From Spirochaetes bacterium GWF1_51_8 (GTDB lineage Bacteria; Spirochaetota; Brevinematia; Brevinematales; GWF1-51-8): a stretch of DNA of 64,000 nucleotides. The notes under the pieces were generated by a model. The model was not told the origin of the DNA. It saw only the letters and a program-made list of their open reading frames with translations, and did no database searches. Each line of letters opens with the position of its first letter. The first letter of the stretch is position 1. Location: contig MIBE01000006.1 of NCBI GenBank assembly GCA_001829415.1, positions 52,300-116,299 of the forward strand, read 5' to 3'. The position numbers were made by a program, and so were the translations under genes. Below are positions 12,860 through 63,788 of this stretch, piece after piece.

Positions 12860-12880
12860 ATCCTATCCTTTTAATAGTCT

Positions 12881-12906: not shown

Positions 12907-12955
12907 ATCTATTATTAGCAAGCCTTTCTATCGGAGTCCGGGTTAAAACAGCGCG

Positions 12956-14005: not shown

Positions 14006-14025
14006 ACTCTATCCTCCTAAAAAGA

Positions 14026-15501: not shown

Positions 15502-15511
15502 AGTTCCGTCC

Positions 15512-46981: not shown

Positions 46982-47639
46982 TTCCCGGGATCGAATGTCC
47001 CTTAGCGCAGAACGATAAAGAAAACACATATCCGTTTTCAATCCGGTATTCGCCGGGATGGAACGCTTTTCCTCGGGGGGTTTCGAAATGGTACTCGACA
47101 GAGCCGTTCGTCTCCCCCGGGAAAACGGATACCCTGTCGAACCAGAACGGCATATCGGTCAGCCGTCTCGTCATTTTGAAAAACGCCTCTTTTAACGAAA
47201 AAACCGTCAGTATTCCGTCGGGGACGGATTTCCAGAACTCTTCCTCAGGATTGAGGATTTGCCCGGCGGCGTCAGCGCTCACAGGGCGTCCCAGTATCTG
47301 GACGTCGACGCCTATCGCGCGGAACTGAGCGGAATCTCCCGCGACCGCGCAGGTCAGCCCGTCGGTATGCGATATGCTCCCGACTGTGCCGTGAGGGAAA
47401 ACCGGCTCACGGAACGGGCCGCGCGGGAGACAGACACCGGGGCCGTATCCCAAACCCGAGAGAGCCTGCCGCGCGCAATAACGTCCGGTAGCGAATTCCT
47501 TACGGCGGGTGTCGTTGGAATCGCGGACAAGCTCGAACTCCTCGGGAAGAAGGGTCTCGTCCCCGAGCAGCATCCCGGTAAAAAAGTAACATATTTTCAA
47601 TTCGGCAAGCCGCGGCGCGGCGGATTTCAAAATGCGCAT
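46965..47639 (-). CDS. 4'-phosphopantetheinyl transferase (Sfp/EntD type)
   Basis: RRKEFATGRYCARQAL, PVFPHGTVGSISHT, IGVDVQ and FSLKEAFFK are the PPTase motifs. Converges on and overlaps the fabF-like gene by 17 nt. Confidence 0.85.
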   Translation of the reverse strand: MRILKSAAPRLAELKICYFFTGMLLGDETLLPEEFELVRDSNDTRRKEFATGRYCARQALSGLGYGPGVCLPRGPFREPVFPHGTVGSISHTDGLTCAVAGDSAQFRAIGVDVQILGRPVSADAAGQILNPEEEFWKSVPDGILTVFSLKEAFFKMTRRLTDMPFWFDRVSVFPGETNGSVEYHFETPRGKAFHPGEYRIENGYVFSLSFCAKGHSIPGITPRT

Positions 47640-50121: not shown

Positions 50122-50149
50122 AGCCTCGGCGGAAGCCGGGGCTTTTTTT
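50122..50149. terminator. bidirectional rho-independent terminator between bfr and the PIN pair
   Basis: AGCCTCGGC (50122-50130) / GCCGGGGCT (50135-50143), GGAA loop, T-run 50143-50149. Confidence 0.85.
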
Positions 50150-50534
50150 ATTCTGTGGTGATTTGAATTTCAGTAGACAGAAAATTGTTTTTAAGGATTT
50201 CAATTTCTTTTTTACATTGGGATTTTGTAGGAAAGCTCTCACTCGAATAAATGATATCTCCGGTAGAATTCTTTAGTCTAAACTGATACTCGTTATTTTT
50301 ATTTTTAAAAATTTCATATTTTAAAATAGAACTATGTTGAATGTTTTCCGAATACTTCTTAGCCTCATTAAATAATTCTTCCGCGCTTATTCCTTTGAAT
50401 ATATCTTTTCGCCACTCAGTATAATCGAAATTATCTTTTTTAATAAGATTGATAAACTTTTCCGATTCAACCAACCCAAGGTTTTCCCGCAGGACTTTCA
50501 TTCCCTCATATCTGATAACGCTATCGGCTTTCAT
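50148..50534 (-). CDS. PIN-partner protein: short N-terminal antitoxin-like region fused to a YegP/DUF1508-like domain
   Basis: ATG 50534 overlaps the PIN stop (ATGA). N-terminal LGLVESEKFINLIKKDNFDYTEWRKDIF. C-terminal KYEIFKNKNNEYQFRLKNSTGDIIYSSESFPTKSQCKKEIEILKNN fits the YegP repeat pattern. A/T-rich. Confidence 0.75.
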   Translation of the reverse strand: MKADSVIRYEGMKVLRENLGLVESEKFINLIKKDNFDYTEWRKDIFKGISAEELFNEAKKYSENIQHSSILKYEIFKNKNNEYQFRLKNSTGDIIYSSESFPTKSQCKKEIEILKNNFLSTEIQITTE

Positions 50535-50980
50535 TTCGCCTCCCACATTAAAACAAAATCTACTGGATTGAATACTTCAATCACTTCAAGATTTTTGCTT
50601 TTTCTTAAAATATCCTTGTCTGTGGTTAAAAAGTATTCGCATTTCGCATAAATCGCACATGCTAAGTGAAGGGAATCTAAAGACTTCATTCTGTTTTTTA
50701 CCTCAATTTCCCTCGCAATGGATTTTATCTCTAATTTCGCAGGAATATACTTTGCAGATAAAAATCTCCAGACACTAATATTATCACGTTTATCGTTGTA
50801 GGGATTTTTAGAGTTTTCGAAATCCAATGCGAAAGACCAAACCAAACTCAGATTCTTCATTCTAATTTGATCCTGAATAGACAGTTTTGCTTCAGATTCA
50901 AGAATTATCGTTTCATTTACTGGATCGTCAAAAGGTCTGTTATAACAGCAATTGTCTAAATATATAAGCAGTTTCTCCAT
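50531..50980 (-). CDS. PIN-domain ribonuclease toxin (VapC-like)
   Basis: Acidic quartet candidates in IYLDNCCYNRPFDD, LESEA, SLDSLHLACAI and FLTTDKDIL. 149 aa. A/T-rich. Confidence 0.85.
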   Translation of the reverse strand: MEKLLIYLDNCCYNRPFDDPVNETIILESEAKLSIQDQIRMKNLSLVWSFALDFENSKNPYNDKRDNISVWRFLSAKYIPAKLEIKSIAREIEVKNRMKSLDSLHLACAIYAKCEYFLTTDKDILRKSKNLEVIEVFNPVDFVLMWEAK

Positions 50981-51046: not shown

Positions 51047-51076
51047 TAAAAACCGCCCCCATTGCTGAGAGCGGCT
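51047..51076 (-). terminator. weak candidate terminator after the biosynthetic operon
   Basis: Minus strand GCCGC...GCGGU (5 bp including one G-U, 14-nt loop) followed by UUUU. Weak. Confidence 0.3.
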
Positions 51077-51117: not shown

Positions 51118-51675
51118 TCATTCGTCCAAGAACATCACCTCGGCGATCGATACCGAGCAGATTTTGCCGTCGGATATAATCTGACTCAATACCGTGCCGA
51201 ACGTGCCGTCGTATTCGAGGCGTTTCGCGATCATCTGCGCGGTCTTACCCGGCAGAAGCTGATCGAGGAACATCGCGCCGAGAACCTTTGTCACAAGAAC
51301 GCTCACCGGTTTCGCGCCGGGGGCGATGTCCGTCCGCTTGTTCACCACAAAGTAGGTGAGGCAGAGACCCAATTGCCCGCCCATTTCGAGCTGGAGCGAT
51401 CCCGGATAGACCGGATGCCCCGGGAAATGCCCCGCGAAAAGCGGCTCGGCCGGATCGATATAACGGGAACCGAAAATCAGTTCCTCGTTCTCGGTCAGGT
51501 CGACACCTTGAAGGCTGTCGACGAGCAGGAACGGGGCGCGGTGCGGGATAATCCGTTCGATAGCGTCACGCCCGTACTCGAGCTTCGCGAAGGAACCGCG
51601 TTCCTTTAACGATTCAATATCCGCGATAGGCTTTTTCCGGTAACGCCGAAGGAGCGTTTCATGAGCTTCATTCAC
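51118..51675 (-). CDS. FabZ/FabA-like 3-hydroxyacyl-ACP dehydratase (hot-dog fold)
   Basis: IIPHRAPFLLVDSL and FAGHFPGHPVYPGSLQLEMGGQL are the FabZ catalytic His/Glu motifs. Overlaps the AOS stop by 8 nt. Confidence 0.88.
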   Translation of the reverse strand: MNEAHETLLRRYRKKPIADIESLKERGSFAKLEYGRDAIERIIPHRAPFLLVDSLQGVDLTENEELIFGSRYIDPAEPLFAGHFPGHPVYPGSLQLEMGGQLGLCLTYFVVNKRTDIAPGAKPVSVLVTKVLGAMFLDQLLPGKTAQMIAKRLEYDGTFGTVLSQIISDGKICSVSIAEVMFLDE

Positions 51676-52948
51676 CGAGCATCCCTTTCGCTTTTAGTTT
51701 CTTAACAATCACGTCTTCGATAATATTCAGCGCTTCGTCCATCACTTCCCGTTCGATCTGCGCGGTCATCGAGAGGCGGAAACGGCGCTCGTGCGCGGGG
51801 ACGGCGGGGAAGTCCACCGGCTGAAGGAACAAGCCTTTCAACTGGAGCTCGGTCGCCAATTCGAACAAGAGTTCTCCGGACGACCCGACGATGATCGGAA
51901 TGACCTGAGATTGGGTACCGCCGAGATTGAGCTTCATCGCCTGGAGCTTATCTTTGAAATACTTGGTGTTTTCCCAGAGCTTATCGCGCAGGGACGAATC
52001 GCGGGTGGCGACTTCGAGCGACTTCATCAACCCGCAGACAATCGCGGGCGAGGGAGCGCAGGAGAAGTTGAACGCCGAGGCGTAACCGCGGAGATACTTC
52101 ACGATCAGCGCGTTCGAGCAGATAAATCCGCCTACGCCGCCGAACGATTTCGACAGTGTCCCGTAGTCCATGCCGACCTTATCTTCGAGACCGAAATGCT
52201 CTCCGACCCCGCGTCCGTTCTTGCCGAACATGAGCGAGGAATGGGCTTCGTCGAGATACAGCGCGACATTCGGGTAGGAACTGTCGATCATCTGGGTAAT
52301 CTCGGGAAGTTTCACAAGGTCTCCGTCCATCGAATAAACCCCTTCGACGGCGAGAAGGGTGCGCTTTCCTTTATGCTCGGAAAGGATCTGATCCAGATGC
52401 TGCATATCGTTATGCTTGAAAAAGATCATTTTCGCGCCGGATAGAATACCGCCGTCAACAAGACTCTTATGAATCTTCTCGTCCATGACTAAAATATCGC
52501 CTTTGCGGAGCAAGCCCTGCAATGCGCCTACATTGCCGCCCAATCCGCTCGAGAAAAGGATACAATCCTCTTTCTTCTTGAAGTCGGCGAGCTTTTTGGC
52601 GAACTGCACGTGGACGTCGAACGTACCGGAAAGCATCGGCGAACCCGATGCGCCCATCCCGTACTTCTTGACCCCGTCGATAACAGCCTGGATAACTTCA
52701 GGATGAGTGGAAAGGCCGAGGTAGTTATACGACGTGAAATTGATCACACGGCGGTCTTTACCGTCGATATTGCTGTGAATTTTCGTCACTGAACGGGGCG
52801 CGTCCAACAGCATCTGATGGAAAAAGCTGAAACCCGCCTGGATTTGAGGGTCCTGTATCCACTCGAGGAAATCCGAAGGGGGAGTTAATACGTTCGGACT
52901 ATCGTTATAGAAAAAGTCCGCTAAACTAAAACTTAATGCGTTTTTCAT
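51668..52948 (-). CDS. alpha-oxoamine synthase family PLP enzyme (serine palmitoyltransferase / CqsA / BioF-like acyl-thioester:amino acid C-acyltransferase)
   Basis: NFTSYNYLGLSTHPEV, AVEGVYSMDGD, DEAHSSLMFG and PLP lysine in GTLSKSFGGVGGF. ATG 52948 (MKNALSF...) lies 16 nt after the ACP stop. Confidence 0.92.
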   Translation of the reverse strand: MKNALSFSLADFFYNDSPNVLTPPSDFLEWIQDPQIQAGFSFFHQMLLDAPRSVTKIHSNIDGKDRRVINFTSYNYLGLSTHPEVIQAVIDGVKKYGMGASGSPMLSGTFDVHVQFAKKLADFKKKEDCILFSSGLGGNVGALQGLLRKGDILVMDEKIHKSLVDGGILSGAKMIFFKHNDMQHLDQILSEHKGKRTLLAVEGVYSMDGDLVKLPEITQMIDSSYPNVALYLDEAHSSLMFGKNGRGVGEHFGLEDKVGMDYGTLSKSFGGVGGFICSNALIVKYLRGYASAFNFSCAPSPAIVCGLMKSLEVATRDSSLRDKLWENTKYFKDKLQAMKLNLGGTQSQVIPIIVGSSGELLFELATELQLKGLFLQPVDFPAVPAHERRFRLSMTAQIEREVMDEALNIIEDVIVKKLKAKGMLGE

Positions 52949-52964
52949 AATTTCTCTTCCGATT

Positions 52965-53207
52965 TTATTTTGCCTGCTCCATGAACTTGTCGGCAAGCTG
53001 GTCGATTGTAGAAATGTCCGCGAGTTCTGACCTAGGGATCTTGATATTCAGTTCGCGCATCGAGGTGGAAACGACTTCGATAATATCGAGGCTGTTGGCA
53101 CCGTAATCCTTCATCGACTTCTTAGGATCGATGTCGGCTTCGTTCAAATCCTCAAGGTTATCGAGGATGTTTTTCTTGATAACCTTAATCACATCTGCTT
53201 TCGTCAT
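52965..53207 (-). CDS. acyl carrier protein
   Basis: 80 aa, GGAGGA SD, phosphopantetheine Ser in DYGANSLDIIEVV. Confidence 0.9.
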   Translation of the reverse strand: MTKADVIKVIKKNILDNLEDLNEADIDPKKSMKDYGANSLDIIEVVSTSMRELNIKIPRSELADISTIDQLADKFMEQAK

Positions 53208-53227
53208 TTTTATTCCTCCAAACTGAT

Positions 53228-54043
53228 TTATTCTTTATTCTGGGTTTCTTTCCATGTCAGGTACTGGGTCATGATATTGTCCTGGAACGGGTAGCCTTTA
53301 TCGACCGTGACGATCTGACCGTTCATCGCATCGAAGAGGCCCGAGCAGAGTCCGAACACGGCCTTTCCGCATTCGTCGGGATTGAGGATCGTTTCCTCGG
53401 GGATACCGCGCTGACGGACGAAGTCGAAGAACGATTCGCCGAAGATATACATAAACGACTCGGTTTTGACCGGGCCGAAACGGATGACGTTGACACGGCT
53501 TCCTTCCTTCTGGAGATGCACCGAGAGGTATTTCCCGAAGAACTCGAGAAGCGCCTTCGACGCCGCGACAAAATCGTAGCCCTTGTAGTAATGCGACGGG
53601 CCGTCGCTGGAAATACCGATCACATGATCGGGGTATTTGCCGAACACCCTTTTGATCTGGCGGGTGTATTCGATCAACGGCCATGTGCTGTAGTCGAGAG
53701 TTTTATAGAGCGAACGTTTCTGGTACTCGTCGAGGTTCTTGGGGCTTTGGGCGAATCCCACGTTACTGATGAAATAATCGATAGCGGTCTCTTTCTCCTT
53801 TACCTGTGCGAGGAGCGCGGCGGTGTCTTCGTCGTTGGAGACGTCGGCCTGGATCAGGACCGGTTTGATCGCGCCGGCGTTCTCGAACTCGGCGAAAAGA
53901 GGAGCATAGTCGTCCGAACCCCACTTGTAGGAGAGGTATGTCCGCGCGCCCGCTTTCGCGAAATACAGCGCAGACGATAGTCCGATACCCTTCGTGCCCC
54001 CAGTGATTAGAACCGCTTTATCCTTCATATCGATCGAAAACAT
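53228..54043 (-). CDS. SDR-family reductase, enoyl-ACP reductase-like (FabI/FabL-type Y-x6-K)
   Basis: Rossmann VLITGGTKGIGLS. The catalytic spacing YDFVAASK (Y-x6-K) is typical of enoyl reductases rather than the Y-x3-K of ketoreductases. Confidence 0.85.
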   Translation of the reverse strand: MFSIDMKDKAVLITGGTKGIGLSSALYFAKAGARTYLSYKWGSDDYAPLFAEFENAGAIKPVLIQADVSNDEDTAALLAQVKEKETAIDYFISNVGFAQSPKNLDEYQKRSLYKTLDYSTWPLIEYTRQIKRVFGKYPDHVIGISSDGPSHYYKGYDFVAASKALLEFFGKYLSVHLQKEGSRVNVIRFGPVKTESFMYIFGESFFDFVRQRGIPEETILNPDECGKAVFGLCSGLFDAMNGQIVTVDKGYPFQDNIMTQYLTWKETQNKE

Positions 54044-54070
54044 ATGTACCCCTATGCAGATGATAGATTT

Positions 54071-54820
54071 CTATTGTCCCGCGTAGAACTCTTCGATTGT
54101 CTTCCGGGTTTCAGGAAAACCGAACGAAAGCTTGTGCATCATGTCTTCCTGGAGCCGGGCATCGACAAGAAGTTTCCTGCGCCTTGCGCTGAGAGTGTAT
54201 TTTAATAGCTGAATAGATTTTATATTCTTTTCCGCGATTTGTAAAGCAATATCACCGGCCTTTTTCATGACATCGGCGCGCGGAACGATGTAATTGATGT
54301 TCGTGCCCATCCCTGCAAGCTCGCTTCCCTTGTAGCGCTTTCCCGTATACATCATCTCGTTCGACACAAACACGCCGAACAGGTCGGGCAGGAGGGTAGT
54401 GCATCCCATCCCGGGAGTGAAACCGAGCGACATGAACACGACGCCGTAACGGCTTTCGCGCGCGGCGATCACGATATCACAGCACGCCGCCATCACCAGC
54501 CCGCCGCCTACGGCATGGCCTTCCATCGCCGCGATCACGGGGACTGTCGAATGCACGAGGCGTTCGGAGATCACGAGGTCCTTGACATGCACGGTGCCGT
54601 CGCAGAGGTCCATCAGGTTCTTCTTTTCGGCGCCCGCCGCGAATACGTCGGACAAGCCGTGCAGGACGATTACCTTCGGATTCATCGACTCGGCCTTTTC
54701 CATACCGGCGACCAGTTCGGCGATGAAGTCGTCGGAAAACACATTCTTCTTCGCCTCGTCGCACATATGCAGGTAAACAATCCCGTGTTCGTCGGCGCGG
54801 ATTTTAATTCTATCGCTCAT
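54071..54820 (-). CDS. crotonase-superfamily enzyme, ECH2 (PksI-like decarboxylase) position
   Basis: Crotonase oxyanion-hole pattern LHGLSDVFAAGAE and IAAMEGHAVGGGLVMAACCDIVIAA. ACGGAG SD lies in the 11-nt gap after the inserted cassette. Confidence 0.88.
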   Translation of the reverse strand: MSDRIKIRADEHGIVYLHMCDEAKKNVFSDDFIAELVAGMEKAESMNPKVIVLHGLSDVFAAGAEKKNLMDLCDGTVHVKDLVISERLVHSTVPVIAAMEGHAVGGGLVMAACCDIVIAARESRYGVVFMSLGFTPGMGCTTLLPDLFGVFVSNEMMYTGKRYKGSELAGMGTNINYIVPRADVMKKAGDIALQIAEKNIKSIQLLKYTLSARRRKLLVDARLQEDMMHKLSFGFPETRKTIEEFYAGQ

Positions 54821-54831
54821 GTTAACTCCGT

Positions 54832-55590
54832 TTAATGATATTCTCTATTGAAAAATGCTACACTATTTGACTGAAAGTCTTGAAAATCGGGAAAGATTTT
54901 GTCCGAAGCGGATTCTAAGCGTCTTCTATCTTTGTTTCTGATCACATCAAAATCACGTAATACGCTTACGCTTCTAAACTGGATATTTCTTTTTTGAAAC
55001 TCCAATAAACAAATGGTAGCGATTTTTGATTTATCCGAGTTGTTTATTCCAAATAAATATATCGGTTTAGATAATGAATTAAAAACATAATCTACCTCAA
55101 GATCGTCCCGCTCGGGAATAGGGAAAACATTTTTCTCAAAAGGAAACTCCGATAGATTATCCTGGATAAATTCTTCCAGCATTTCATAAAACAAATCTTG
55201 TATTATCTCTCGTTTGAAGTATTCCATTGTAGAAACTTTTAAAACAGCCTCAATAAAAGTCATAATGGAATTAAATAGTAATGGTAAATCGCAAATTAGA
55301 TAAATACTCATATTATCTTCATTAACTCTATTTTGCGCAATGATTTTTTTAAAAATTTCTTCCTTTTTTGGCGTATCAATTTCATATGAATAGGAGAGAC
55401 GCATCACAGTCATTCCTAAATCCGAAATTTTTATTTTATTATCCGATAAAGGAATAATATAGACTTCAACAATATCACCATCCTCATAAAAAAAAGGAAT
55501 GATGACCTGATATATACCTTCTCTTCGTTCACGGATAATGAATTGTCCATGGCATTGAGTATTCAGGGCTTTTTCAATTATTTCTCTCAT
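54832..55590 (-). CDS. AT-rich protein resembling DUF1828/DUF1829 proteins (unknown function)
   Basis: ATG 55590 preferred (track TTG 55599). N-terminal YQVIIPFFYEDGDIVEVYIIPLSDNKIKISDLGMTV and C-terminal VDYVFNSLSKPIYLFGINNSDKSK...FRSVSVLRDFD recall the DUF1828 + DUF1829 architecture. This is recognition from memory, not a search. Confidence 0.7.
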   Translation of the reverse strand: MREIIEKALNTQCHGQFIIRERREGIYQVIIPFFYEDGDIVEVYIIPLSDNKIKISDLGMTVMRLSYSYEIDTPKKEEIFKKIIAQNRVNEDNMSIYLICDLPLLFNSIMTFIEAVLKVSTMEYFKREIIQDLFYEMLEEFIQDNLSEFPFEKNVFPIPERDDLEVDYVFNSLSKPIYLFGINNSDKSKIATICLLEFQKRNIQFRSVSVLRDFDVIRNKDRRRLESASDKIFPDFQDFQSNSVAFFNREYH

Positions 55591-55611
55591 ATAAAACAAC
55601 TCTTTTTTACA

Positions 55612-56091
55612 TTAATTAAAAAGCGGTATTTCATCTATGCCGTTCAAACAATTGAAGTATTGTTTCGCCTCAATCATATTTGTAAATTCCAAAAAATATA
55701 ATAAAGCGCTTTCAAAACTAGTATATTTATCGGTCTTTTCAGCGAAATTTTCCGCTTTGTACCCATTTTCTATCGCGTTTTGTGTAGCGATATGAATATG
55801 AAATCCTGAAACAATTGACCCGTCTTCATTTTTATGATCACCGTGGTTTCCATTAAATCGTAATAGAACAATTTGTGCTTCGTTTTTTGGGTGATAGATT
55901 AAACCAATCGAAAAGGCATCGATTAGATTTTTATTCTTTCTCATGAAAACTGAAAACGTATTATCTTTATTATCCGATACAACTAACAATTTATTTCTTA
56001 AATCCTGCCCGCAGTCCTTAAACTCTCTAAGCGGTTTTTCAAGCACATTCTTTTTTTGACGAATAAGGTTTGTTATTTCCTCATTATTCAT
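55612..56091 (-). CDS. AT-rich 159-aa protein of unknown function (His-rich core)
   Basis: ATG 18 nt after the ECH1 stop with AAAGGA upstream. Only salient motif is LLRFNGNHGDHKNEDGSIVSGFHIHIAT. No TM, no signal peptide. Confidence 0.7.
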   Translation of the reverse strand: MNNEEITNLIRQKKNVLEKPLREFKDCGQDLRNKLLVVSDNKDNTFSVFMRKNKNLIDAFSIGLIYHPKNEAQIVLLRFNGNHGDHKNEDGSIVSGFHIHIATQNAIENGYKAENFAEKTDKYTSFESALLYFLEFTNMIEAKQYFNCLNGIDEIPLFN

Positions 56092-56109
56092 TCTTCAATC
56101 CTTTTTCTC

Positions 56110-56922
56110 TTAGTCGATCCGCACGAGCGGATTCGAAAATTTCGCTTTCCCGAACCACGGCGGCGTCGATCCTTCGCTGAACGCTTTTATTCCCTCGAGG
56201 ACGTCGTCCCGCGAGATCAGTTCTATTAATGTTTTCTTGGCGTGGTTGCACGATTCGTCTATTGTCTTGGAGAGGAGTTCACGCGTGAAATGCTTGGTCA
56301 CAGCCACCGCGGAAGGCGCGGTACGGAATAGGCTCTTGATGAGCGCTTTTGCCCCTTTCTCCAGCTCGTCCATCGGGTAGACCTCGTCGATAATCCCGAT
56401 CGACTGCGCATCGAGGGCGTTCAGCCGTTTCGCGGTCATGATGAGATAGCGCGCTTTTTGAGGGGAGATCCGGAGCGAAAACAGGAACGGCAGGACGTTC
56501 GCGGGGATCAGCCCGAGCAGGGCTTCGCTCAGTTCGACCGTGGTGTCGTCCGACGCGATTACTATGTCGCACGCGGATACAAGCCCGGTGCCGCCGGCCT
56601 TGATATCGCCGTAGACTAATGCCACGACCGGTTTAGGAGCCTCAAAGATTTTTAACAGGAGATCGGTGTAGAGACCGACTGCTTCCTCGGCGAGCGTTGT
56701 GTCGCCCCGCGCGTCCAGCAGGAACTGCAAGTCCATCCCGAGGGAAAAGTTTTTCCCGTTTGAACGGAGCAATATGACGCGGATTTCGTCGTGCATGATC
56801 GCGGCATTGAAAGCGTGGGACAATTCGGCGAGGGTTTCATGGTTCAGGCGGTTCCCGTTCGCGGAGTCCGCGAGGGTGATAATTCCCAGACCGTTATCGG
56901 CCAGAAACTCGACTTTTCCCAT
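56110..56922 (-). CDS. crotonase-superfamily enzyme, ECH1 (PksH-like dehydratase) position
   Basis: LLRSNGKNFSLGMDL and VALVYGDIKAGGTGLVSACDIVIAS crotonase motifs. 3-nt gap after the HMGS gene. Confidence 0.88.
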   Translation of the reverse strand: MGKVEFLADNGLGIITLADSANGNRLNHETLAELSHAFNAAIMHDEIRVILLRSNGKNFSLGMDLQFLLDARGDTTLAEEAVGLYTDLLLKIFEAPKPVVALVYGDIKAGGTGLVSACDIVIASDDTTVELSEALLGLIPANVLPFLFSLRISPQKARYLIMTAKRLNALDAQSIGIIDEVYPMDELEKGAKALIKSLFRTAPSAVAVTKHFTRELLSKTIDESCNHAKKTLIELISRDDVLEGIKAFSEGSTPPWFGKAKFSNPLVRID

Positions 56923-56925
56923 TTG

Positions 56926-58155
56926 TTACACCCGTTCGTAGGTCCTGAAAAAGTCCTTGACTTCCTTCAGAACCAGTTTGCCCGATCCTTTATAAAACTT
57001 ATCGTACCAGTTATCCGCTACCGAGAAATCGGGAGTGAAATTCGGATTCTCGATATAGCTTTCGCGGAGATTTTCGATTTTCTCATACTCGGCGACCGAT
57101 ACTTTCCGGCGCGCGTCGAAAGCCTCGTCGATCTTCATCGAGTCGATGGTCTTTCTCGCCTCGGGGCAGACAAGGGCGCTGTAATACTCGCCCATACATC
57201 CCGAGCCGTAGGAGAACAGTCCGATACGGTCGCCCGCTTTGAGGGCGTCGTTCGTCTTGATCACTCCGCAGAGGCCGACAAAGTTGCTGGCGCCGTAGGT
57301 CGAACCCACACGTTTCGCGTAACGGAGCGAGGGTAAAGTCTTGATCTTGAAATGCTCTTCGATCTGGGACTTCTTGCTGATCCCGGCGATCTTGCAGAGC
57401 ACTCTGTGCCCATGGAACGCCATTCCGGGGAAGGGCATATGATAGATGTTGTTGACAAAATACTTATCGAAGTCGATCGTGCCGCCGACCTTGGCGAGAT
57501 AGTCCATATACGCGCCTTCGAGCGCGTCCTGGTAGCTGTAAAGGCTGACTTCGTTATTCCCGACTTCGGCATGCGCGGACGGCCTGAACGTATCGTAGAC
57601 ATTGGTCGTCCACGAACCCTTCTTCTCGATCTCATACTCGATGACCTTCGGGGTGTCGCTGACTAATACCGCGGCCGCTGTTCCGCCGAGGACGAACTCG
57701 TGGTCTTTATTGAAATGCTTCCTGCTGAAGTCGGCGGCGATCACAAGCGCCTTTTTACCGTGGTTCAGCCCCGATGCGATCCAGTTGATCGCGGTATCGA
57801 GAGCGGCGACGCCGCTGTAGCATGCATGCTTCGTTTCATAGGTACGGACATTGGGATTGAGGCCGAGCGCGGCGTGGATATTTGTCGAGATCGGCTTCCC
57901 GAAATCGACGGAACCTTCCGTACCGACAATCAGCATCCCGATATCTTTCTTATCTTCTTCGGATATGATCGGGATCGCGGCGTTCGCGCCCATAGTGACC
58001 GTATCCTCATATGGGGGGTTGAGCGAACGGGTATCGATCATGAAATCGGTGAGGACACGTTCGGGATCGCGGCCGCGCGCCTTCGCGAGGTCGACCTGTT
58101 CCATCGAGAGCGAACACCCGTAGATATTGATTTTCTCTATACCGACTTTCTTCAT
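56926..58155 (-). CDS. HMG-CoA synthase family enzyme (PksG-type HMG-ACP synthase by context)
   Basis: Catalytic triad motifs LIVGTEGSVDFGKP (Glu), ETKHACYSGVAAL (Cys) and NIYHMPFPGM (His), plus FSYGSG. ATG 58155 sits 9 nt after GGAGG. Confidence 0.92.
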   Translation of the reverse strand: MKKVGIEKINIYGCSLSMEQVDLAKARGRDPERVLTDFMIDTRSLNPPYEDTVTMGANAAIPIISEEDKKDIGMLIVGTEGSVDFGKPISTNIHAALGLNPNVRTYETKHACYSGVAALDTAINWIASGLNHGKKALVIAADFSRKHFNKDHEFVLGGTAAAVLVSDTPKVIEYEIEKKGSWTTNVYDTFRPSAHAEVGNNEVSLYSYQDALEGAYMDYLAKVGGTIDFDKYFVNNIYHMPFPGMAFHGHRVLCKIAGISKKSQIEEHFKIKTLPSLRYAKRVGSTYGASNFVGLCGVIKTNDALKAGDRIGLFSYGSGCMGEYYSALVCPEARKTIDSMKIDEAFDARRKVSVAEYEKIENLRESYIENPNFTPDFSVADNWYDKFYKGSGKLVLKEVKDFFRTYERV

Positions 58156-58183
58156 AATAAGCATCCTCCAGAAATTTTTCAGG

Positions 58184-58924
58184 TTACGGGGCGTAAGTCA
58201 ATCCGCCGGATACGCGGATTACCTCGCCGTTTATAAAACTTGCTTCATCGGAACTCAGAAAATAAACAGTACTCGCGATATCCTCGCCCGTACCGACACG
58301 TTTCAACGGACAGTACTGCATCCAGAACTCATGCAGGGGTTTCGCGAGATTGTCCTTCGTCATATCGGTCTCGACATATCCCACCGTGACGACATTGGAC
58401 GTGATGCCCTTAGGGCCGTATTCCTTAGCGAGAGTCTGGGTCATCCCGATCAAACCCGCTTTCGCGGCTGAATAGTTGACCTGTCCCGAACACCCGGCTT
58501 GCGCGAGCGACGAGATATTGATGATCCGTCCGTCGCGGTTCGAGATAAAATGCATGAGGAACATGCGGATGATATAGAAGGGACCCGAAAGGTCGGCCGC
58601 GATCACTTCTTCCCATTCCTCGTTGCTCATAAGAGCCGCGGCGTTATTCCTGACCACGGCGGCGTTGTTCACCACCGCGCGGATATCTCCGAAATCGTCG
58701 AGCGCTTTTTCGACGACCGTTTCCACTTCAGCCGACGACTTGACGTCGAGACGGTAGTAACGGACTTCCGCTTTGGGATTGATCTCTTTAGCGAGTTTAA
58801 CTGTTTCCTTAGCGGCGTCTTCGTTGCCGACATAAGTAAACCCGCAGCCCCATCCTTCCTTAATATATTTCAGGACGATGGCTCTGCCGATACCGCGCGA
58901 GCCTCCAGTCACAAAAGCGTTCAT
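58184..58924 (-). CDS. 3-oxoacyl-ACP reductase (FabG-like SDR)
   Basis: FVTGGSRGIGRA, NNAAVV and YSAAKAG (Y-x3-K). 246 aa. 3-nt gap after the KS gene. Confidence 0.92.
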   Translation of the reverse strand: MNAFVTGGSRGIGRAIVLKYIKEGWGCGFTYVGNEDAAKETVKLAKEINPKAEVRYYRLDVKSSAEVETVVEKALDDFGDIRAVVNNAAVVRNNAAALMSNEEWEEVIAADLSGPFYIIRMFLMHFISNRDGRIINISSLAQAGCSGQVNYSAAKAGLIGMTQTLAKEYGPKGITSNVVTVGYVETDMTKDNLAKPLHEFWMQYCPLKRVGTGEDIASTVYFLSSDEASFINGEVIRVSGGLTYAP

Positions 58925-58927
58925 AGT

Positions 58928-60217
58928 CTATCCTTCATATTTTTTTATCAGGGAACAGCAGTTGAGGCCGCCGAAACCGAACGAGTTCTTGATGAAGATG
59001 TTTACCGGGTAATCGACGGGGCCGTCCTTGCAGACATCGAGATCGATCGAGGGATCGAGTTCGTCTATGTTGATAGTCTGGTGAAGCCTGCCGTGGTTCA
59101 TCTGGAGCACCGCGCCGACCAATTCGACCAGCGGAGCCGCCCAGCAGGTGTGACCCATCAATGACTTGGGAGCGTTTACTTTCATCTTGTATGCATGCGC
59201 TCCGAACGCCTTCTTGATAGCGGCGAGCTCGGTGTCGTCGCCGAGCGGGGTTCCGGTAGCATGACAACTGATAAAATCGACTTGTTCGGGACGGATGCCG
59301 CCCATCTTCATGAGGTTGAGCATCAGCGCCGATTGCGCGTCCGCGGACGGCTGGGGCAGATGGTTCGCGTTGGCGTTCGCGGCCACACCGAGTATCTCGG
59401 CGTAAATCTTCGCGCCGCGCGCTTTCGCGTGATCGAGATCTTCTATCACGACCGTCGCCGCGCCGTGCGAGGCGATGAAACCGGATCGTTTTATATCGAA
59501 CGGGCGCGAGGCCTTCTCGGGGCACTCGAGCCATTGCGGGTCGACCACGAGCGCGCTCAGGTAACCCATCGCGTGAACATCGGATTCGTTCATATCCCAT
59601 ATCGGGCCGGAGATGACCGAAGCGTCGCATTCGCCGGTAACGATATCGCGGAAACCGTCACGCAGGGCGATATTCCCGCTCGCGCATGCCGCGCCGAGGT
59701 TGTACGCCGGGCCCTGGATACCGAGCACTTCGCTGATCGTGCCGGGGATGTTCGGGTCGAGCGCCTCGATACCGTAAAGCGGATCGATATATTCCGGTTC
59801 CTTATCGAATTGGTGAATCTGTTCCATCACATACTTGGTGTTGAAATTGTGCCCGCCGACCATGGCGCTGATCCGGTACGGGTCAAAATCCTTACCGAAC
59901 AACCCGGCGTCGATAAACGCCTCGAGAGCGGTGATGACCGCGGACTTGTTTGAAAAGGTCATATTGCGGTAGAGCTTGCGGATTTTCTTGTACTGCTCTT
60001 CGCTGAGAAACGGTTTTTTACGTTCGAGCGCGGCGGCAAAATCGTAGTCGCCGAGGTCGCCCCCGAGTTTGCACTCGACCTTCGATACGTCGATCGAATG
60101 CCATTTCTTGACACCGGATTTTCCGGCCATCATGCTTTCATAATATCCTTCAAGGGTGTCGCCTATCGGATTGATAGTCGCCATTCCCGTAATCACAACG
60201 CGTTTAAGATTTGCCAT
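58928..60217 (-). CDS. beta-ketoacyl synthase (KS, Cys-His-His intact)
   Basis: LGAACASGNIAL (Cys), ISCHATGTPLGD (His), KSLMGHTCWAAP (His), NSFGFGGLNCCSLI. ATG 60217 with AAGAGGGA upstream is preferred, because ATG 60250 would lie only ~20 nt from the -10 box. Confidence 0.92.
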   Translation of the reverse strand: MANLKRVVITGMATINPIGDTLEGYYESMMAGKSGVKKWHSIDVSKVECKLGGDLGDYDFAAALERKKPFLSEEQYKKIRKLYRNMTFSNKSAVITALEAFIDAGLFGKDFDPYRISAMVGGHNFNTKYVMEQIHQFDKEPEYIDPLYGIEALDPNIPGTISEVLGIQGPAYNLGAACASGNIALRDGFRDIVTGECDASVISGPIWDMNESDVHAMGYLSALVVDPQWLECPEKASRPFDIKRSGFIASHGAATVVIEDLDHAKARGAKIYAEILGVAANANANHLPQPSADAQSALMLNLMKMGGIRPEQVDFISCHATGTPLGDDTELAAIKKAFGAHAYKMKVNAPKSLMGHTCWAAPLVELVGAVLQMNHGRLHQTINIDELDPSIDLDVCKDGPVDYPVNIFIKNSFGFGGLNCCSLIKKYEG

Positions 60218-60270
60218 CCCCAAGTCCCTCTTGTTTATTGTAAGTAACATATCTCTATTCTAACTCTAAT

Positions 60271-60299
60271 ATAATAATGGCAACCCCTATTTTTGTCAA
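60271..60299 (-). promoter_or_regulatory. near-consensus sigma70 promoter of the KS-...-DH operon
   Basis: Minus strand TTGACA (60299-60294) - 17 nt - TATTAT (60276-60271). Confidence 0.6.
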
Positions 60300-60656: not shown

Positions 60657-60687
60657 AAAAAGCGCGGACATTTTTCGATGCCCGCGC
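60657..60687 (-). terminator. rho-independent terminator after 60696..61301
   Basis: GCGCGGACAT (60662-60671) / ATGCCCGCGC (60678-60687), one G-U. On the minus strand it is followed by UUUUU (A-run 60657-60661). Confidence 0.8.
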
Positions 60688-60695
60688 CGGATTGT

Positions 60696-61301
60696 TTAAA
60701 GGTCGTCGCTTTTCTGGGGAACTTTCGAAAGGCCGATTACGAGGCTGGAAAACTCTTTCACTTTCCAGATACCCTTGTCGTTCTTTATCAAGGTCACGGG
60801 ACGGGGCATGTTTCCGCCCGATGTCGGGATAAATACCTTGACCGTGGTCTCGTTGATCACGCTGTATTTATTGGTGCTGAAATAGAGCGTGTAGGGGGCG
60901 GACGGCAGCGCGTAACTGTCGTCGACGGATGTCCCGTCGATATACGAGTTCGGGACATAGGGATACTTTGCCAGCTGGGTCATGAGATAAACAACGCTTC
61001 CATTGGGAGACTTGCCGCCGAAACCCTTAGCATCGTCTTTCAGCATCGAGCCGTCGTTGACAAGGATCGCCGTCATGCACTTGAGGCCGAGACTCTCGTC
61101 CTTGACATAGTTCAAGAGCGCGATCACCAGCATCGCCGCCCCGCCTGTCGGGGTTAACGCGATCTCATCGCGCATTTTCACAAATTCCTCGATAGTGGAC
61201 GGTAACCCGTCAATTGTCACCTTCATGGGGATCTGTATCGCTGGGAACGCCAGCCCGATAGTCAATGCCACAACTGCCGCGGCTAAAATCACTTTTTTCA
61301 T
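60696..61301 (-). CDS. secreted protein of unknown function
   Basis: AGGAGG SD, signal peptide MKKVILAAAVVALTIGLAFPA. The conserved-looking C-terminus SGGNMPRPVTLIKNDKGIWKVKEFSSLV recalls an uncharacterised DUF family I cannot name with certainty. Confidence 0.8.
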   Translation of the reverse strand: MKKVILAAAVVALTIGLAFPAIQIPMKVTIDGLPSTIEEFVKMRDEIALTPTGGAAMLVIALLNYVKDESLGLKCMTAILVNDGSMLKDDAKGFGGKSPNGSVVYLMTQLAKYPYVPNSYIDGTSVDDSYALPSAPYTLYFSTNKYSVINETTVKVFIPTSGGNMPRPVTLIKNDKGIWKVKEFSSLVIGLSKVPQKSDDL

Positions 61302-61675: not shown

Positions 61676-62005
61676 TTACATTCCGAGACCGGAATCTTTA
61701 AGTCCCTGTTCGATTCTTTCTTTTTCAGCATCGAAAGCCTTCTTCTCAGCGTCGGACAAAGTGGGATAGATCGCATCGAGTTCAGCGCCGAGCTTTTCGA
61801 GTTCGACACCGACAGTTTCGATACGTGAAGCGGCGTTAGTATCGCCGGTGAACGCCTTCATGACCAATTCGAGCATTTCGGTGGTCAAGGATTCAACTTT
61901 GGCCATTTTGGCCTTCCAGTCTCCGCCGGTAGCGGTGTTTCCGCAGCTTACGACAACAGACATACCCATAGCAAGAACAACGGCGGCGATTAAAAGTTTC
62001 CGCAT
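61676..62005 (-). CDS. small helical lipoprotein, paralogue 1 of 6
   Basis: ATG 62005 after GGAGGA, lipobox VVVSC. GGDWKAKM...GDTNAASRIETVGVELEKLGAELDAIYPTLSDAEKKAF. Confidence 0.85.
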   Translation of the reverse strand: MRKLLIAAVVLAMGMSVVVSCGNTATGGDWKAKMAKVESLTTEMLELVMKAFTGDTNAASRIETVGVELEKLGAELDAIYPTLSDAEKKAFDAEKERIEQGLKDSGLGM

Positions 62006-62122
62006 AACATCCTCCAAACGATATTTTTCGGATTTTCCGATTCCCATAATATAAAAGGCGGTGCCTATTTTGTCAAAATATCTCGGGGATTCGGGCGGAA
62101 ATTCCGGCTTATCAACCGAAAA

Positions 62123-62464
62123 TCACTTCTGTTTCATATACCGGTCGAAATTGTTCGTAAAGAACCAGATTTCATTACTCACCAGTTCCCGCTGGGTCAG
62201 GTTGTATAACGCCTGCTGATCCGGCGGAAGCGTCTGGTAGATCGTGTTGAGTTCCCCGCCCAGCTTCTCCATTTCGGCGTTGATTTTGTTCATCTCCGCG
62301 ATCATGTTCGTGTCGCCCATCCGGAGAGCCTCGTACTTGACCTTCGCCTGCGCGATCAATTCGGACGCCCGCGCGAACTTGGCTTTCCATTCCGGGGCGG
62401 TATTGTTCCCGCATCCCGCCGCCGACAGTCCGGCGATCATCAAGACGGCAATCAATTTCTTCAT
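62123..62464 (-). CDS. small helical lipoprotein, paralogue 2 of 6
   Basis: Lipobox SAAGC. APEWKAKF...GDTNMIAEMNKINAEMEKLGGELNTIYQTLPPDQQ. Confidence 0.85.
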   Translation of the reverse strand: MKKLIAVLMIAGLSAAGCGNNTAPEWKAKFARASELIAQAKVKYEALRMGDTNMIAEMNKINAEMEKLGGELNTIYQTLPPDQQALYNLTQRELVSNEIWFFTNNFDRYMKQK

Positions 62465-62485
62465 AGTTTCTCCATCATTCTCGGC

Positions 62486-62824
62486 TTACTCGACGGTCAG
62501 CGCGTCGATCAGCTCGTCGTTCGTCAGATCCATCGCCTCCTGAAGCATGTTCATCGACGCCTGTTCGACCTTCTTCTGCTCTTCGGGCGGAAGTTTCGCG
62601 TAGACCTCGTCCAGCTCGGTCTGCACCTTAACAAGTTCGGCGTCGATCGCCTCGATCCGCTTGACCGCGTTCGTGTCGCCCTTCTTCAGCTCCATCATCT
62701 CGGCCTTCATCTGTTTTGTCAACTGGGCGATCTTCTCGATCTTCGGCTTCCAGTCCGGCAACGGGGCCTGCGCGCATGCAACAGCCAAACCAATCGCCGC
62801 CAATCCTATCAAAATCGCTTTCAT
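62486..62824 (-). CDS. small helical lipoprotein, paralogue 3 of 6
   Basis: Lipobox LAVAC. LPDWKPKI...GDTNAVKRIEAIDAELVKVQTELDEVYAKLPPEEQKK. Confidence 0.85.
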   Translation of the reverse strand: MKAILIGLAAIGLAVACAQAPLPDWKPKIEKIAQLTKQMKAEMMELKKGDTNAVKRIEAIDAELVKVQTELDEVYAKLPPEEQKKVEQASMNMLQEAMDLTNDELIDALTVE

Positions 62825-62841
62825 ATATCCTCCAGTGCTTT

Positions 62842-63225
62842 TTATTCGCCGTAGCTCATTTCGGGGATTTCGGCAATCGACATAATTTTATCGTACCTTT
62901 CCTTGAACTGAGCCTTCGATTCTTCCGAAAGCTGAGGCGCGATATACCCGAGTTCCATTTCCATCCCGCGAAGCTCGGATTCCATCTGGCCGCATTTCGC
63001 CTTGGCGTCCTCGTCGCCGGATTCCGCCGCCTGTTTTGTCGCGGCATAATCCTTCATCAGCGCTTCCATCTTATCCAGGCGCCCCTTCCAGTCCGGCTCG
63101 TCCGACGCGGACGCCGCCGCGGAGTTCGTGACCGGCTTCCCGCCGGAGTTCCCGCAGCCCGCGAACATGACGGTACACACCGCGGTCAATCCCAAGAGCG
63201 CTATTCCTTTCCACACAATTTTCAT
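62842..63225 (-). CDS. small helical lipoprotein, paralogue 4 of 6
   Basis: ATG 63225 after GGAGGAG (MKIVWKGIALLGLTAVCTVMFAGC). EPDWKGRL...GDEDAKAKCGQMESELRGMEMELGYIAPQLSEESK. The 48 extra codons in the track run into repeat copy B. Confidence 0.8.
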   Translation of the reverse strand: MKIVWKGIALLGLTAVCTVMFAGCGNSGGKPVTNSAAASASDEPDWKGRLDKMEALMKDYAATKQAAESGDEDAKAKCGQMESELRGMEMELGYIAPQLSEESKAQFKERYDKIMSIAEIPEMSYGE

Positions 63226-63251
63226 AACTCCTCCTTCACGTGATATGAGAA

Positions 63252-63380
63252 ATATGGTCACCCCTAATACCCGCCGATTCTCGGCGGCGAGGAAGTGACC
63301 ATTGGGCATCTTCAAAAGATATATCATTATTAATGTTAAAAATAGTAACTGTTTTATAGAACAGCCCATATTTTAACACA
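63252..63380 (+). repeat. structured intergenic repeat, copy B (plus orientation)
   Basis: ATGGTCACCCCTAATACCCGCCGATTCTCGGCGGCGAGGAAGTGACCATTGGGCA + AT-rich tail alignable with copy A for ~75 further nt. Outer arms 63254-63261/63295-63302, inner 63271-63277/63281-63287. Confidence 0.7.
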
Positions 63381-63418
63381 TGTCCGGGAATTGTCAATCG
63401 CCGGCGGGAATTCCGCGT

Positions 63419-63443
63419 AAAAAAAGCCCCGTTCGCGCGGGGC
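63419..63443 (-). terminator. rho-independent terminator after 63480..63788
   Basis: GCCCCG (63426-63431) / CGGGGC (63438-63443). On the minus strand it is followed by seven U (A-run 63419-63425). Confidence 0.85.
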
Positions 63444-63479
63444 TTCCTATTCGATCATAATCTACTGTCATTAAGAAAT

Positions 63480-63788
63480 CTACATCGAGTCGATCATCTT
63501 CTCGACCGCGTCTTTGCGTGCGTCGAACTCCTTCTTGTCCGCCTCGGACAGCGAGGGATACATCTTATCGAGCTCTTCGCCGTACTTCTCGATCTCGGTT
63601 TCCAACGCCTCGATCCGCTTCTCGTCGACGGCTTCGCCAGCGAGGTACTTCACGAGCAGTGTCTGCATCTCAGCCGCCAATGTTTCGACCTTAGTCATTT
63701 TCCCCTTCCAGTCGCCGCCGCCCGCGCATGACGAGAGAAGCCCCGCCGCGATGATGAGCGCCGCGAACACCGCGAAAAATCTTTTCAT
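63480..63788 (-). CDS. small helical lipoprotein, paralogue 5 of 6
   Basis: Lipobox LLSSC. GGDWKGKM...EAVDEKRIEALETEIEKYGEELDKMYPSLSEADKKEF. Confidence 0.85.
   Translation of the reverse strand: MKRFFAVFAALIIAAGLLSSCAGGGDWKGKMTKVETLAAEMQTLLVKYLAGEAVDEKRIEALETEIEKYGEELDKMYPSLSEADKKEFDARKDAVEKMIDSM

Follow-up and report, generated by a model that had tools for sequence, protein, structure and literature searches.

The stretch of DNA analyzed here (64,000 nucleotides, hereafter the window) comes from Spirochaetes bacterium GWF1_51_8 (GenBank assembly GCA_001829415.1, contig MIBE01000006.1, positions 52,300 to 116,299), a metagenome-assembled genome (MAG) that, going by its name, we take to come from Rifle-aquifer groundwater. 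On its minus strand the window carries a nine-gene operon in which a beta-branching cassette, built around a 3-hydroxy-3-methylglutaryl (HMG) synthase (HMGS), is joined to a set of discrete enzymes of the type II fatty acid synthase (FAS) kind and to an alpha-oxoamine synthase (AOS) resembling serine palmitoyltransferase (SPT). Together with a second ketosynthase (KS2) and a 4'-phosphopantetheinyl transferase (PPTase) encoded nearby, the operon would, on what we hold to be the probable reading on balance, specify a self-contained pathway that runs on a single acyl carrier protein (ACP) and leads to an acyl-ACP with a methyl branch, probably at the iso terminus, which would be set free as a base resembling 3-ketosphinganine. 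The HMG-CoA synthase (HCS) cassette, the type II FAS and the release of chains by Spt-type enzymes are each known; their combination, and the role suggested for it by sequence comparison, appear not to have been described previously. The operon is widespread in uncultured anaerobes.

Organization of the operon

An initial annotation, made from the letters and the translated open reading frames (ORFs) of the window alone, had proposed nine co-directional minus-strand genes, spaced by -8 to 28 nt apart from one insertion and lying behind a TTGACA-N17-TATTAT promoter. All nine ORFs are present (Table 1); their start sites are those of the gene calls on the source scaffold, and their domains were confirmed with profile hidden Markov models from Pfam and NCBIfam. 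The intergenic gaps from KS1 to the dehydratase (DH) measure 3, 28, 3, (the insertion), 27, 20 and 16 nt, with an overlap of 8 nt between AOS and DH, which matches the spacings given, and the insertion is real (see below). The motifs that had been read in the ketosynthase (ACASG, CHATGT and GHTCW), the HMGS (VGTEGS, KHACYSG and YHMPF), the second short-chain dehydrogenase/reductase (SDR; Y-x6-K, as YDFVAASK), the ACP (GANSLD), the AOS (TLSKSFG and DEAHS) and the DH (HFPGHP) were also all recovered. The promoter lies where it had been placed: matching at 11 of 12 positions, it is the top sigma-70-type match across 50-61.5 kb, and its exact pattern is found a single time in the window, where chance would give 0.02 occurrences. 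Because this promoter is combined with terminator-like hairpins, one upstream of it and one after DH, the transcription unit is well delimited.

As the initial annotation had stated, the operon holds no acyltransferase (AT), no thioesterase and no Cys-less ketosynthase. It had missed, however, the genes for KS2 and the PPTase, which are arranged tail to tail about 4 kb from the operon and, in other genomes, are syntenic with the cluster; the system takes in these two and, in many genomes, a FabD-like AT as well. Since 'hypothetical protein' is the name under which most of the operon proteins stand in public records, the operon is effectively unannotated.

Table 1. Features of the operon and of the associated genes in the window.
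Feature	Position	Strand	Remarks
KS1, divergent FabF-like ketosynthase	58928-60217	-	Pfam ketoacyl-synt N and C domains; NCBI OHD57424.1
FabG-type 3-ketoacyl-ACP reductase (KR)	58184-58924	-	adh_short_C2 and KR domains
HMG synthase (HMGS), PksG/CurD type	56926-58155	-	NCBI OHD57422.1, locus tag A2Y33_08025
Crotonase 1 (ECHa)	56110-56922	-	ECH_1 domain
Two-gene insert: DUF6978 (55612-56091) and DUF1828 (54832-55599)	54832-56091	-	at the ECHa/ECHb junction
Crotonase 2 (ECHb), PksI/CurF-type ECH2	54071-54820	-	NF005496
FabL/FabI-like SDR, putative enoyl-ACP reductase (ER)	53228-54043	-	adh_short_C2 domain
Dedicated ACP	52965-53207	-	PP-binding domain
SPT-like AOS	51668-52948	-	Aminotran_1_2 domain
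FabZ/ApeI-like 3-hydroxyacyl-ACP dehydratase (DH)	51118-51675	-	FabA domain
KS2, near-canonical FabF-type ketosynthase	45701-46981	+	fabF model, 492 bits
Sfp/PptT-type PPTase	46965-47639	-	4PPT_N and ACPS domains
Sigma-70-type promoter, TTGACA-N17-TATTAT	60271-60299	-	best regional match
Terminator-like hairpin closing the operon	51051-51076	-	stem of 11 bp (6 G-C pairs), then a T-rich tail
Terminator-like hairpin of the upstream gene, before the promoter	60661-60688	-	hairpin search

Distribution and conservation of the cluster

The relatives of the HMGS number more than 2,000, and among the best 120 all are at least 64% identical to it. A scan of 185,579 species-representative genomes gave 80 related loci. 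Those at 55% identity or above belong mostly to Spirochaetota (Brevinematales, Spirochaetales and a Salinispira MAG), the other carriers in this range being Aminicenantes, FCPU426, Firestonebacteria and one MAG each from the Chlamydiae and the deltaproteobacteria. Polyangia, Nannocystis, Phycisphaeraceae and a Gemmatimonadetes MAG make up a second group, with an identity of about 45%. The synteny search that had been suggested with the initial annotation found the nine genes in identical order in 43 of the 46 species-level MAGs with enough flanking sequence, including Spirochaetota, Aminicenantes, FCPU426 and unclassified MAGs. In the group at about 45% identity the gene set is the same but its order is permuted, running AOS-DH-KS-KR-HMGS-ECH-ECH-SDR-SDR-ACP. 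KS2 adjoins the cluster in 34/39 genomes with enough flanking sequence. Of the proteins of the cluster the ACP is conserved best (median identity of 75%), and the proposed catalytic residues, the Cys of both ketosynthases among them, are invariant or nearly so in the 35-69 orthologues compared for each protein. Because of this near invariance and of the conserved synteny, all ten enzymes appear to be maintained as active catalysts.

At the locus of a Salinispira sp. MAG (L079), a gene for a DUF285/fibronectin-type surface protein and a YhgA-like transposase (12204-15559) split crotonase 2 from the ER. A 613-aa ORF of the same locus was considered as a fusion of AOS and DH and rejected: it codes for an unrelated DUF285/fibronectin type III protein beside the transposase. 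In the complete 1.88-Mb chromosome of a Spirochaetia MAG (OY843583.1; L078, 7950-12801), only KS1-KR-HMGS-ECHa-ECHb are found, and ER, ACP, AOS and DH do not appear within the following 8 kb; in this organism the cluster has either been split or is decaying.

The HMG synthase and the two crotonases

The initial annotation had left it to clade placement whether the HMGS belongs with PksG and CurD or with MvaS, the HMG-CoA synthase of the mevalonate pathway. The enzyme scores 250 bits against CurD and 234 against PksG, above the 204 obtained with 5HWO, which is the HMG-CoA synthase of Myxococcus (PMC11522927), and the 175 obtained with the Staphylococcus type; on the MvaS model HMG-CoA-S_prok (TIGR01835) it remains below the cutoff (255.7 against 360). 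Moreover, its alignments to CurD, PksG and 8s81 extend to residues 409-411, whereas those to MvaS end at about residues 362-366, and it is a C-terminal extension that sets the HMGSs of polyketide synthases (PKSs) apart from HMG-CoA synthases (PMC11522927). The triad E80, C112 and H239 is invariant in 69/69 orthologues. Judged by these features the HMGS is of the ACP-dependent CurD/PksG type and not an MvaS, which answers the question in favour of the beta-branching clade. CurD acts on acetoacetyl-ACP (PMC11522927). The loop insertions of CurD and PksG are lacking in the HMGS of the window, which has the motif EFVLGG where those enzymes have EPSxGAGA.

The two crotonases had been assigned the roles of ECH1 and ECH2, and this holds well for ECHb, which passes the curated model NF005496 (255.7 against a cutoff of 215) and matches PksI at 135 bits and CurF at 122, the next best structure being at 82. 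By its motifs, ECHb is without both of the canonical hydratase glutamates, taken here to be those of rat enoyl-CoA hydratase. Its catalytic His, conserved in 54/55 orthologues, aligns with His230 of PksI (PMC7501309), and the sequence marks ECHb as a PksI/CurF-type ECH2 decarboxylase. For ECHa the assignment is less direct. Its top-scoring structure is 3i47, an unnamed crotonase from Legionella (115 bits), followed by 5jbw/5jbx (89), isohexenylglutaconyl-CoA hydratase (4zu2; 78) and PksH, at only 68 bits. We believe 5jbw/5jbx to be LiuC of M. xanthus, which acts on the C6 pair HMG/3-methylglutaconyl, and a likeness to that enzyme would fit a small acceptor. Asp64 (conserved in 55/58 orthologues) and Glu133 (58/58) of ECHa would correspond, by motif position alone, to Asp68 and Glu137 of PksH (PMC7501309). 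We propose that ECHa is a putative HMG-thioester dehydratase, filling the ECH1 role.

The fatty acid synthase-like enzymes

KS1 scores best, among NCBIfam models, on the PksF-type PRK07103 (319.5 bits for a cutoff of 445), with fabF at 302, both below cutoff, and reaches 234 bits against FabF structures; its C178, H319 and H356 are invariant in 62/62 orthologues. Because the PksF-type model is the best one, KS1 is perhaps the decarboxylating ketosynthase of the cassette. We regard it as a cassette-associated ketosynthase, a candidate malonyl-ACP decarboxylase and/or initiating condensing enzyme, and the decarboxylating ketosynthase that had seemed to be missing may be KS1 itself, with its Cys retained. 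A hidden Cys-less decarboxylating ketosynthase was considered and rejected, the Cys being kept in both ketosynthases of all orthologues. KS2 behaves differently from KS1 on the same models: it reaches 492 bits with fabF against 243 with the PksF-type model, and 369 bits against FabF structures. Its C178 is invariant in 43/43 orthologues, and it has the sequence characteristics of a true FabF, presumably the elongating ketosynthase that belongs to the system.

The KR scores 236 bits on TIGR01830, and its Ser/Tyr/Lys triad is invariant in 64/64 orthologues. The ER-type SDR has FabL as its best NCBIfam model, below the cutoff; Y156 and K163 of its Y-x6-K motif are invariant in 56/56. The DH also stays below cutoff on the FabZ models (59-63 bits), with H83 and E97 invariant in 35/35 orthologues, as does the ACP on its best model, PRK07117 (56 bits against 79), with Ser39 invariant in 41/41. 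The PPTase, which matches the PptT and Npt models at E values of about 1e-19, is presumed to be the activator of this dedicated ACP. A type II FAS set is therefore complete in the form of discrete KS, KR, DH, ER and ACP, with no AT in the window. There is one ACP per locus. Neither the window nor the flanking DNA of the 80 loci contains a modular PKS, and no FabH-type primer enzyme is encoded at the locus of the window or recurs in the related loci.

The alpha-oxoamine synthase

Among solved structures the AOS is closest to the SPT of Sphingobacterium (260 bits), ahead of Thermus BioF/KBL (225), KBL (203), ALAS (180), cysteate acyltransferase (172), E. coli BioF (165) and CqsA (85). The Lys that binds pyridoxal phosphate and the DEAHS and SMDGD motifs align with those of SPT, and a loop with the sequence PAVPAHE resembles PAVPAEE of SPT; K267, D233 and H236 are invariant in 45/45 orthologues. 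The enzyme falls below the bioF model TIGR00858 (314 against 426) and the CqsA-type model NF005526 (168.6 against 428). Of the classes that the initial annotation had listed, the nearest is thus SPT, with BioF below cutoff and CqsA far away. Because it lies below the cutoff of every curated AOS subfamily, the Spt families included, the AOS of the cluster forms a separate clade.

The gene for the ACP is located directly upstream of that for the AOS, at 16 nt, in the window, and upstream of it in all sufficiently long loci. The nearest AOS relatives outside the cluster, after clustering at 50%, occur as AOS-AT, ACP-AOS, FAAL-ACP-AOS, type I PKS-AOS and AOS-FemAB-like fusions. The neighbourhood of the AOS thus appears, from these arrangements, to be carrier-protein-dependent, and the enzyme is proposed to release the chain by condensing it with an amino acid in a decarboxylative Claisen reaction.

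A lipid context in related genomes

Genes that recur next to the cluster were identified by all-against-all clustering of the ORFs of the 80 loci, followed by tblastn. A FabD-like AT is encoded directly upstream of KS1 in 25 loci, and PPTases of two types follow DH in about 35. Other recurrent neighbours are a tandem-GNAT-like protein of about 380 aa (22 loci), an SDR of the epimerase/3-beta-HSD type (10 loci) and a flippase-like membrane protein (9 loci). In the Chlamydiae MAG (JABDAE010000006.1; L047, 7940-17246), a variant of the cluster without DH has the AOS gene followed by a tandem-GNAT gene and then by a gene for a sphingolipid delta-4 desaturase (Lipid_DES, E value of 8e-15; FA_desaturase, 7e-29), the only desaturase among the 80 loci.

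The tandem-GNAT family is large and reaches the cultured Rosettibacter firmus, in which an epimerase-type SDR, a stand-alone Spt (362 bits to SPT) and a GNAT form a triad. This triad matches the Spt/CerS/CerR arrangement of bacterial ceramide synthesis (PMC11087976, PMC11324152, PMC11334938). In its AlphaFold model (pLDDT of 88.7) the tandem-GNAT protein is closest in fold to acyl-CoA-dependent amine N-acyltransferases (TM scores of 0.6-0.7), which suggests a putative N-acyltransferase. An MprF-like reading of the protein was disfavoured, since FemX and L-PGS gave TM scores of only 0.35-0.48, and BLAST found no similarity between the GNAT and the FemAB-like or unknown C-terminal domains of the fused AOSs. 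The genome from which the window is taken has two tandem copies of the GNAT gene (A2Y33_13090 and A2Y33_13095) on scaffold_152 (L090, 7634-11158), far from the operon; the pair is preceded by a gene for a 388-aa protein, similar in length and with a faint Hexapep match. Neither an acyl-ACP synthetase (AasR) nor another AMP-binding enzyme is encoded at the locus of the window, and none recurs in the related loci.

A proposed pathway to branched sphingoid bases

In the pathway that we propose (step order, iso-terminal position of the branch, chain length, amino acid and lipid end product are all inferred), the PPTase would activate the ACP and a malonyl transferase, presumably the housekeeping FabD in this genome, would load it. 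KS1 would decarboxylate malonyl-ACP to acetyl-ACP, and KS1 or KS2 would form acetoacetyl-ACP, to which the HMGS would add an acetyl unit. The resulting HMG-ACP would be dehydrated by ECHa to 3-methylglutaconyl-ACP, which ECHb would decarboxylate to 3-methylcrotonyl-ACP, and the Y-x6-K reductase could then produce isovaleryl-ACP. From this primer, KS2, KR, DH and ER would build an iso-branched acyl-ACP, and the SPT-like AOS would couple it with an amino acid, of which serine is the likeliest, and so release a branched 3-ketosphinganine-type base. In the relatives, the products of the adjoining GNAT, epimerase-type reductase, desaturase and flippase-like genes might carry the base on to a ceramide-like membrane lipid. 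As no AasR is present, the chain is more readily seen as made de novo on the ACP than as derived from a free fatty acid. Precedents exist for three of the elements: an Spt that uses acyl-ACP with a dedicated ACP (PMC11324152), sphinganines made by a PKS and released by a KBL-like AOS (bioRxiv 10.1101/2024.02.06.579051), and the route from HMG to isovaleryl, at the CoA level, in Myxococcus (PMC5389471).

Several observations weigh against this pathway. The single ACP would have to serve the HMGS as both donor and acceptor, which is unusual with respect to the known cassettes, and KR and HMGS would compete for shared beta-keto intermediates, with no mechanism of choice in evidence. Crotonase 1 lies outside the PksH clade, and a comparison of the loop lengths of the HMGS with those of CurD, PksG and VirC gave no indication of acceptor size. 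The AOS is below the cutoff of SerpalmtaseCFB (310 against 640) and below those of the BetaP and AlphaP Spt models, and it is only 33% identical to the Spt of Rosettibacter, which bears on the amino-acid substrate. The genes for the tandem GNAT, the epimerase-type reductase, the AT and the desaturase are absent from the window, and no CerR-like gene of this genome was found among the best 120 matches. Finally, all 80 loci come from MAGs, and every carrier found is an uncultured organism.

Where in the chain the branch is placed is the point on which the most substantial alternative turns. The HMGS cassette could act on a longer beta-ketoacyl-ACP, late in synthesis or at one set cycle, and place the methyl group in mid-chain or close to the carboxyl end; a 3-methylacyl-ACP, for example, would give a 5-methyl sphingoid base instead of an iso terminus. 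Most characterised HCS cassettes do act on elongated intermediates (PMC11522927, PMC7501309). The missing loop insertions and the EFVLGG motif leave the acceptor specificity of the HMGS unconstrained, and the position of KS1, first in the operon and just before KR and HMGS, would suit a ketosynthase dedicated to the last cycle. We nevertheless prefer isovaleryl-ACP as a starter, because CurD, the closest solved relative of the HMGS, uses acetoacetyl-ACP (PMC11522927), because ECHa scores the non-PKS crotonases (3i47, 5jbw/5jbx and isohexenylglutaconyl-CoA hydratase) above PksH, and because a start for the chain is needed when no FabH-type primer enzyme is present and the starter would supply it; late branching therefore seems to us a possible but unlikely course. 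In a more speculative variant the two ketosynthases would alternate between reducing cycles (KR, DH and ER) and beta-methylating ones (HMGS, ECH1, ECH2 and ER), mimicking isoprenoid synthesis and making from acetate alone, with neither mevalonate nor the methylerythritol phosphate pathway, a poly-methyl-branched, phytanoyl-like chain that is released as a sphingoid base. Two condensation-competent ketosynthases, one reductive loop, one branching loop and a single ACP, all conserved together, are what such a scheme would use, but it has no direct support: a literature search found no iterative use of an HCS cassette in a type II system, and strict alternation would be required with no control element visible. 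We consider it highly improbable.

The nature of the released product has also to be weighed. CqsA/LqsA-type AOS enzymes make alpha-amino-ketone signals, and the product could be a branched alpha-amino-ketone of short or medium chain, a diffusible signal of the CAI-1/LAI-1 kind or a pyrazine precursor, rather than a membrane lipid. No N-acyltransferase or reductase stands beside the operon in the genome of the window, and the results leave chain length unconstrained, both of which would accommodate a signal. On the other hand, CqsA is the most distant of the AOS classes compared (85 bits, with NF005526 at 168 for a cutoff of 428), the full KR/DH/ER loop and a dedicated FabF-type KS2 argue for several rounds of elongation, the surroundings of the cluster in the 80 loci show no recurring gene for a receptor or regulator, and the neighbours that do recur (tandem GNAT, epimerase-type SDR, flippase-like protein and sphingolipid desaturase) are of a lipid type. 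A signal is in our view clearly unlikely, and the sphingoid base is favoured because of the context provided by the tandem GNAT, the epimerase-type reductase and the one delta-4 desaturase. Least probable of all, to a degree that makes it hardly tenable, is a misreading of primary metabolism, with the HMGS making HMG-CoA for the mevalonate pathway or the locus making pimeloyl-ACP/KAPA for biotin, possibilities that the initial annotation had itself raised. HMG-CoA-S_prok and bioF do occur among the NCBIfam matches, both below cutoff, and 'glycine C-acetyltransferase' is the name given to the AOS cluster in one public source. However, the HMGS scores only 255.7 for an MvaS cutoff of 360 and is nearer to CurD and PksG, the AOS scores 314 for a bioF cutoff of 426 and just 165 bits against E. 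coli BioF, and genes for HMG-CoA reductase, mevalonate kinase, bioA, bioB and bioD are absent from the window and do not recur in the 80 loci; HMGS chemistry would, besides, yield no straight-chain C7 diacid.

Comparison with characterised systems

With the HCS cassettes of bacillaene (PksF/AcpK/PksG/PksH/PksI) and curacin (CurB-CurF), the system shares a KS-like enzyme, a small ACP, a crotonase in the proposed dehydrating role, an ACP-type HMGS that has both the C-terminal extension and the Glu/Cys/His triad, and an ECH2 decarboxylase that depends on a His; in curacin, CurD turns acetoacetyl-ACP into HMG-ACP, as is proposed here, an ER acting afterwards. It differs from them in having no modular PKS or acceptor-ACP module and a single discrete ACP with no separate donor, in a cassette ketosynthase that keeps its Cys, in a crotonase 1 outside the PksH clade, and in being embedded in a type II FAS-like set from which an AOS would release the chain. 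The cassette is also combined with type II enzymes that are discrete, and with more than one ketosynthase, in the fogacin type II PKS of Actinoplanes missouriensis (cited in PMC11522927), as far as the title of that report indicates; the product there would be an aromatic polyketide made with ketosynthase/chain-length factor pairs, present in two sets, whereas here both ketosynthases keep the Cys, the chain would be fully reduced and the release would be by an AOS.

Ceramide synthesis in Caulobacter (Spt, AcpR, AasR, CerS/bCerS and CerR) resembles the system in its SPT-like AOS beside a dedicated ACP and, in the relatives, in the adjacent putative tandem-GNAT N-acyltransferase and epimerase/NDUFA9-type reductase. 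The window, in contrast, has no AasR and none of the accessory genes, and its AOS belongs to none of the curated Spt families. The sgaAB genes of Pseudomonas fluorescens MYb115 also combine a synthase that has a full reductive loop and works on a carrier protein with a non-canonical AOS, which there adds serine as SPT does; sgaA, however, is one type I megasynthase, which extends palmitoyl-CoA and lacks branching enzymes, whereas here the enzymes are discrete, of type II, and joined to the HMGS cassette. The AIB route of Myxococcus xanthus (MvaS, LiuC, AibA/AibB and AibC) shares the proposed chemistry, from acetoacetyl through HMG, 3-methylglutaconyl and 3-methylcrotonyl to isovaleryl, and the role of its product, a leucine-independent primer for iso-branched lipids. 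AIB uses CoA thioesters and a glutaconate-CoA-transferase-like decarboxylase (AibA/B), whereas the intermediates here would be ACP-bound and the decarboxylase an ECH2 crotonase; it is thus an analogue, not a homologous pathway.

The initial annotation knew of no characterised pathway that joins the branching and the release modules, and the literature agrees with it: searches for HMGS with SPT or AOS, for beta-branching with sphingolipid, for these phyla with Spt and for ACP-bound HMG or isovaleryl brought up no description of the gene combination. A survey of Spt in the Black Sea (PMC11334938) makes no mention of Spirochaetes, Aminicenantes or HMG synthase. If the proposed pathway is correct, the cassette would be the first of the HMGS beta-branching kind to be found working outside a polyketide assembly line, placed within a discrete fatty-acid-type synthase and feeding a membrane-lipid pathway, and it would provide bacteria with a leucine-independent route, from acetate only, to methyl-branched sphingoid bases. 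Spirochaetota, Aminicenantes, FCPU426 and other uncultured anaerobic lineages would become candidate sphingolipid producers, and a new class of branched long-chain bases, potential environmental biomarkers, would be predicted. Being small, discrete and highly conserved, the enzymes are attractive for reconstitution and for the engineering of branched amino-lipids.

The insertion and other features around the locus

The two genes that interrupt the operon have a GC content of 0.31, whereas the remainder of the operon stands at 0.54, and occupy exactly the position of the spacer of about 25 nt that, in the relatives, runs from the stop codon of ECHa to the ribosome-binding site of ECHb. They match components A and B of the PADLOC candidate defence system PDC-M24 (E values of 5.8e-10 and 1.2e-15) and are absent from all 80 related loci, including those of relatives at 85-87% identity. 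The insert is foreign and outside the pathway; as it lies on the same strand as the operon, with spacers of 11-18 nt, it is presumably co-transcribed with it. In another Spirochaetota MAG (L012, about 5883-6219), an unrelated AT-rich and apparently non-coding insert of about 335 nt is found at the same junction, and insertions may recur in the spacer between crotonase 1 and crotonase 2.

The operon terminator is followed directly downstream, on the minus strand, by two genes with a 16-nt overlap, one coding for a PIN-domain protein (50531-50980) and the other for a DUF1508 protein (50148-50546). The pair may be toxin-antitoxin-like; neither gene has a PADLOC match. Immediately upstream of KS2, on the plus strand, is a pair formed by an NTP_transf_2 nucleotidyltransferase gene and a HepT-like gene (about 44948-45596; coordinates converted from the gene table of L001), a known type of toxin-antitoxin system. 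On the other side of the operon, at least five paralogous genes for putative lipoproteins of 100-125 aa are arrayed in tandem on the minus strand at 61676-63788 and continue past the end of the window (L001, 637-3145). In each of the array proteins a Cys-containing signal peptide precedes a conserved helical region ('DWKxKxxK...'), and none matches a Pfam family; a DUF6935 lipoprotein gene (60696-61301) is found just downstream of the array. Farther away, at about 7.4-20.9 kb, the window has a run of genes for putative surface proteins of the F5/8 type C and fibronectin types, among them a minus-strand ORF of 1,788 aa with lamin-tail (LTD) and Ig-like domains (15512-20878).

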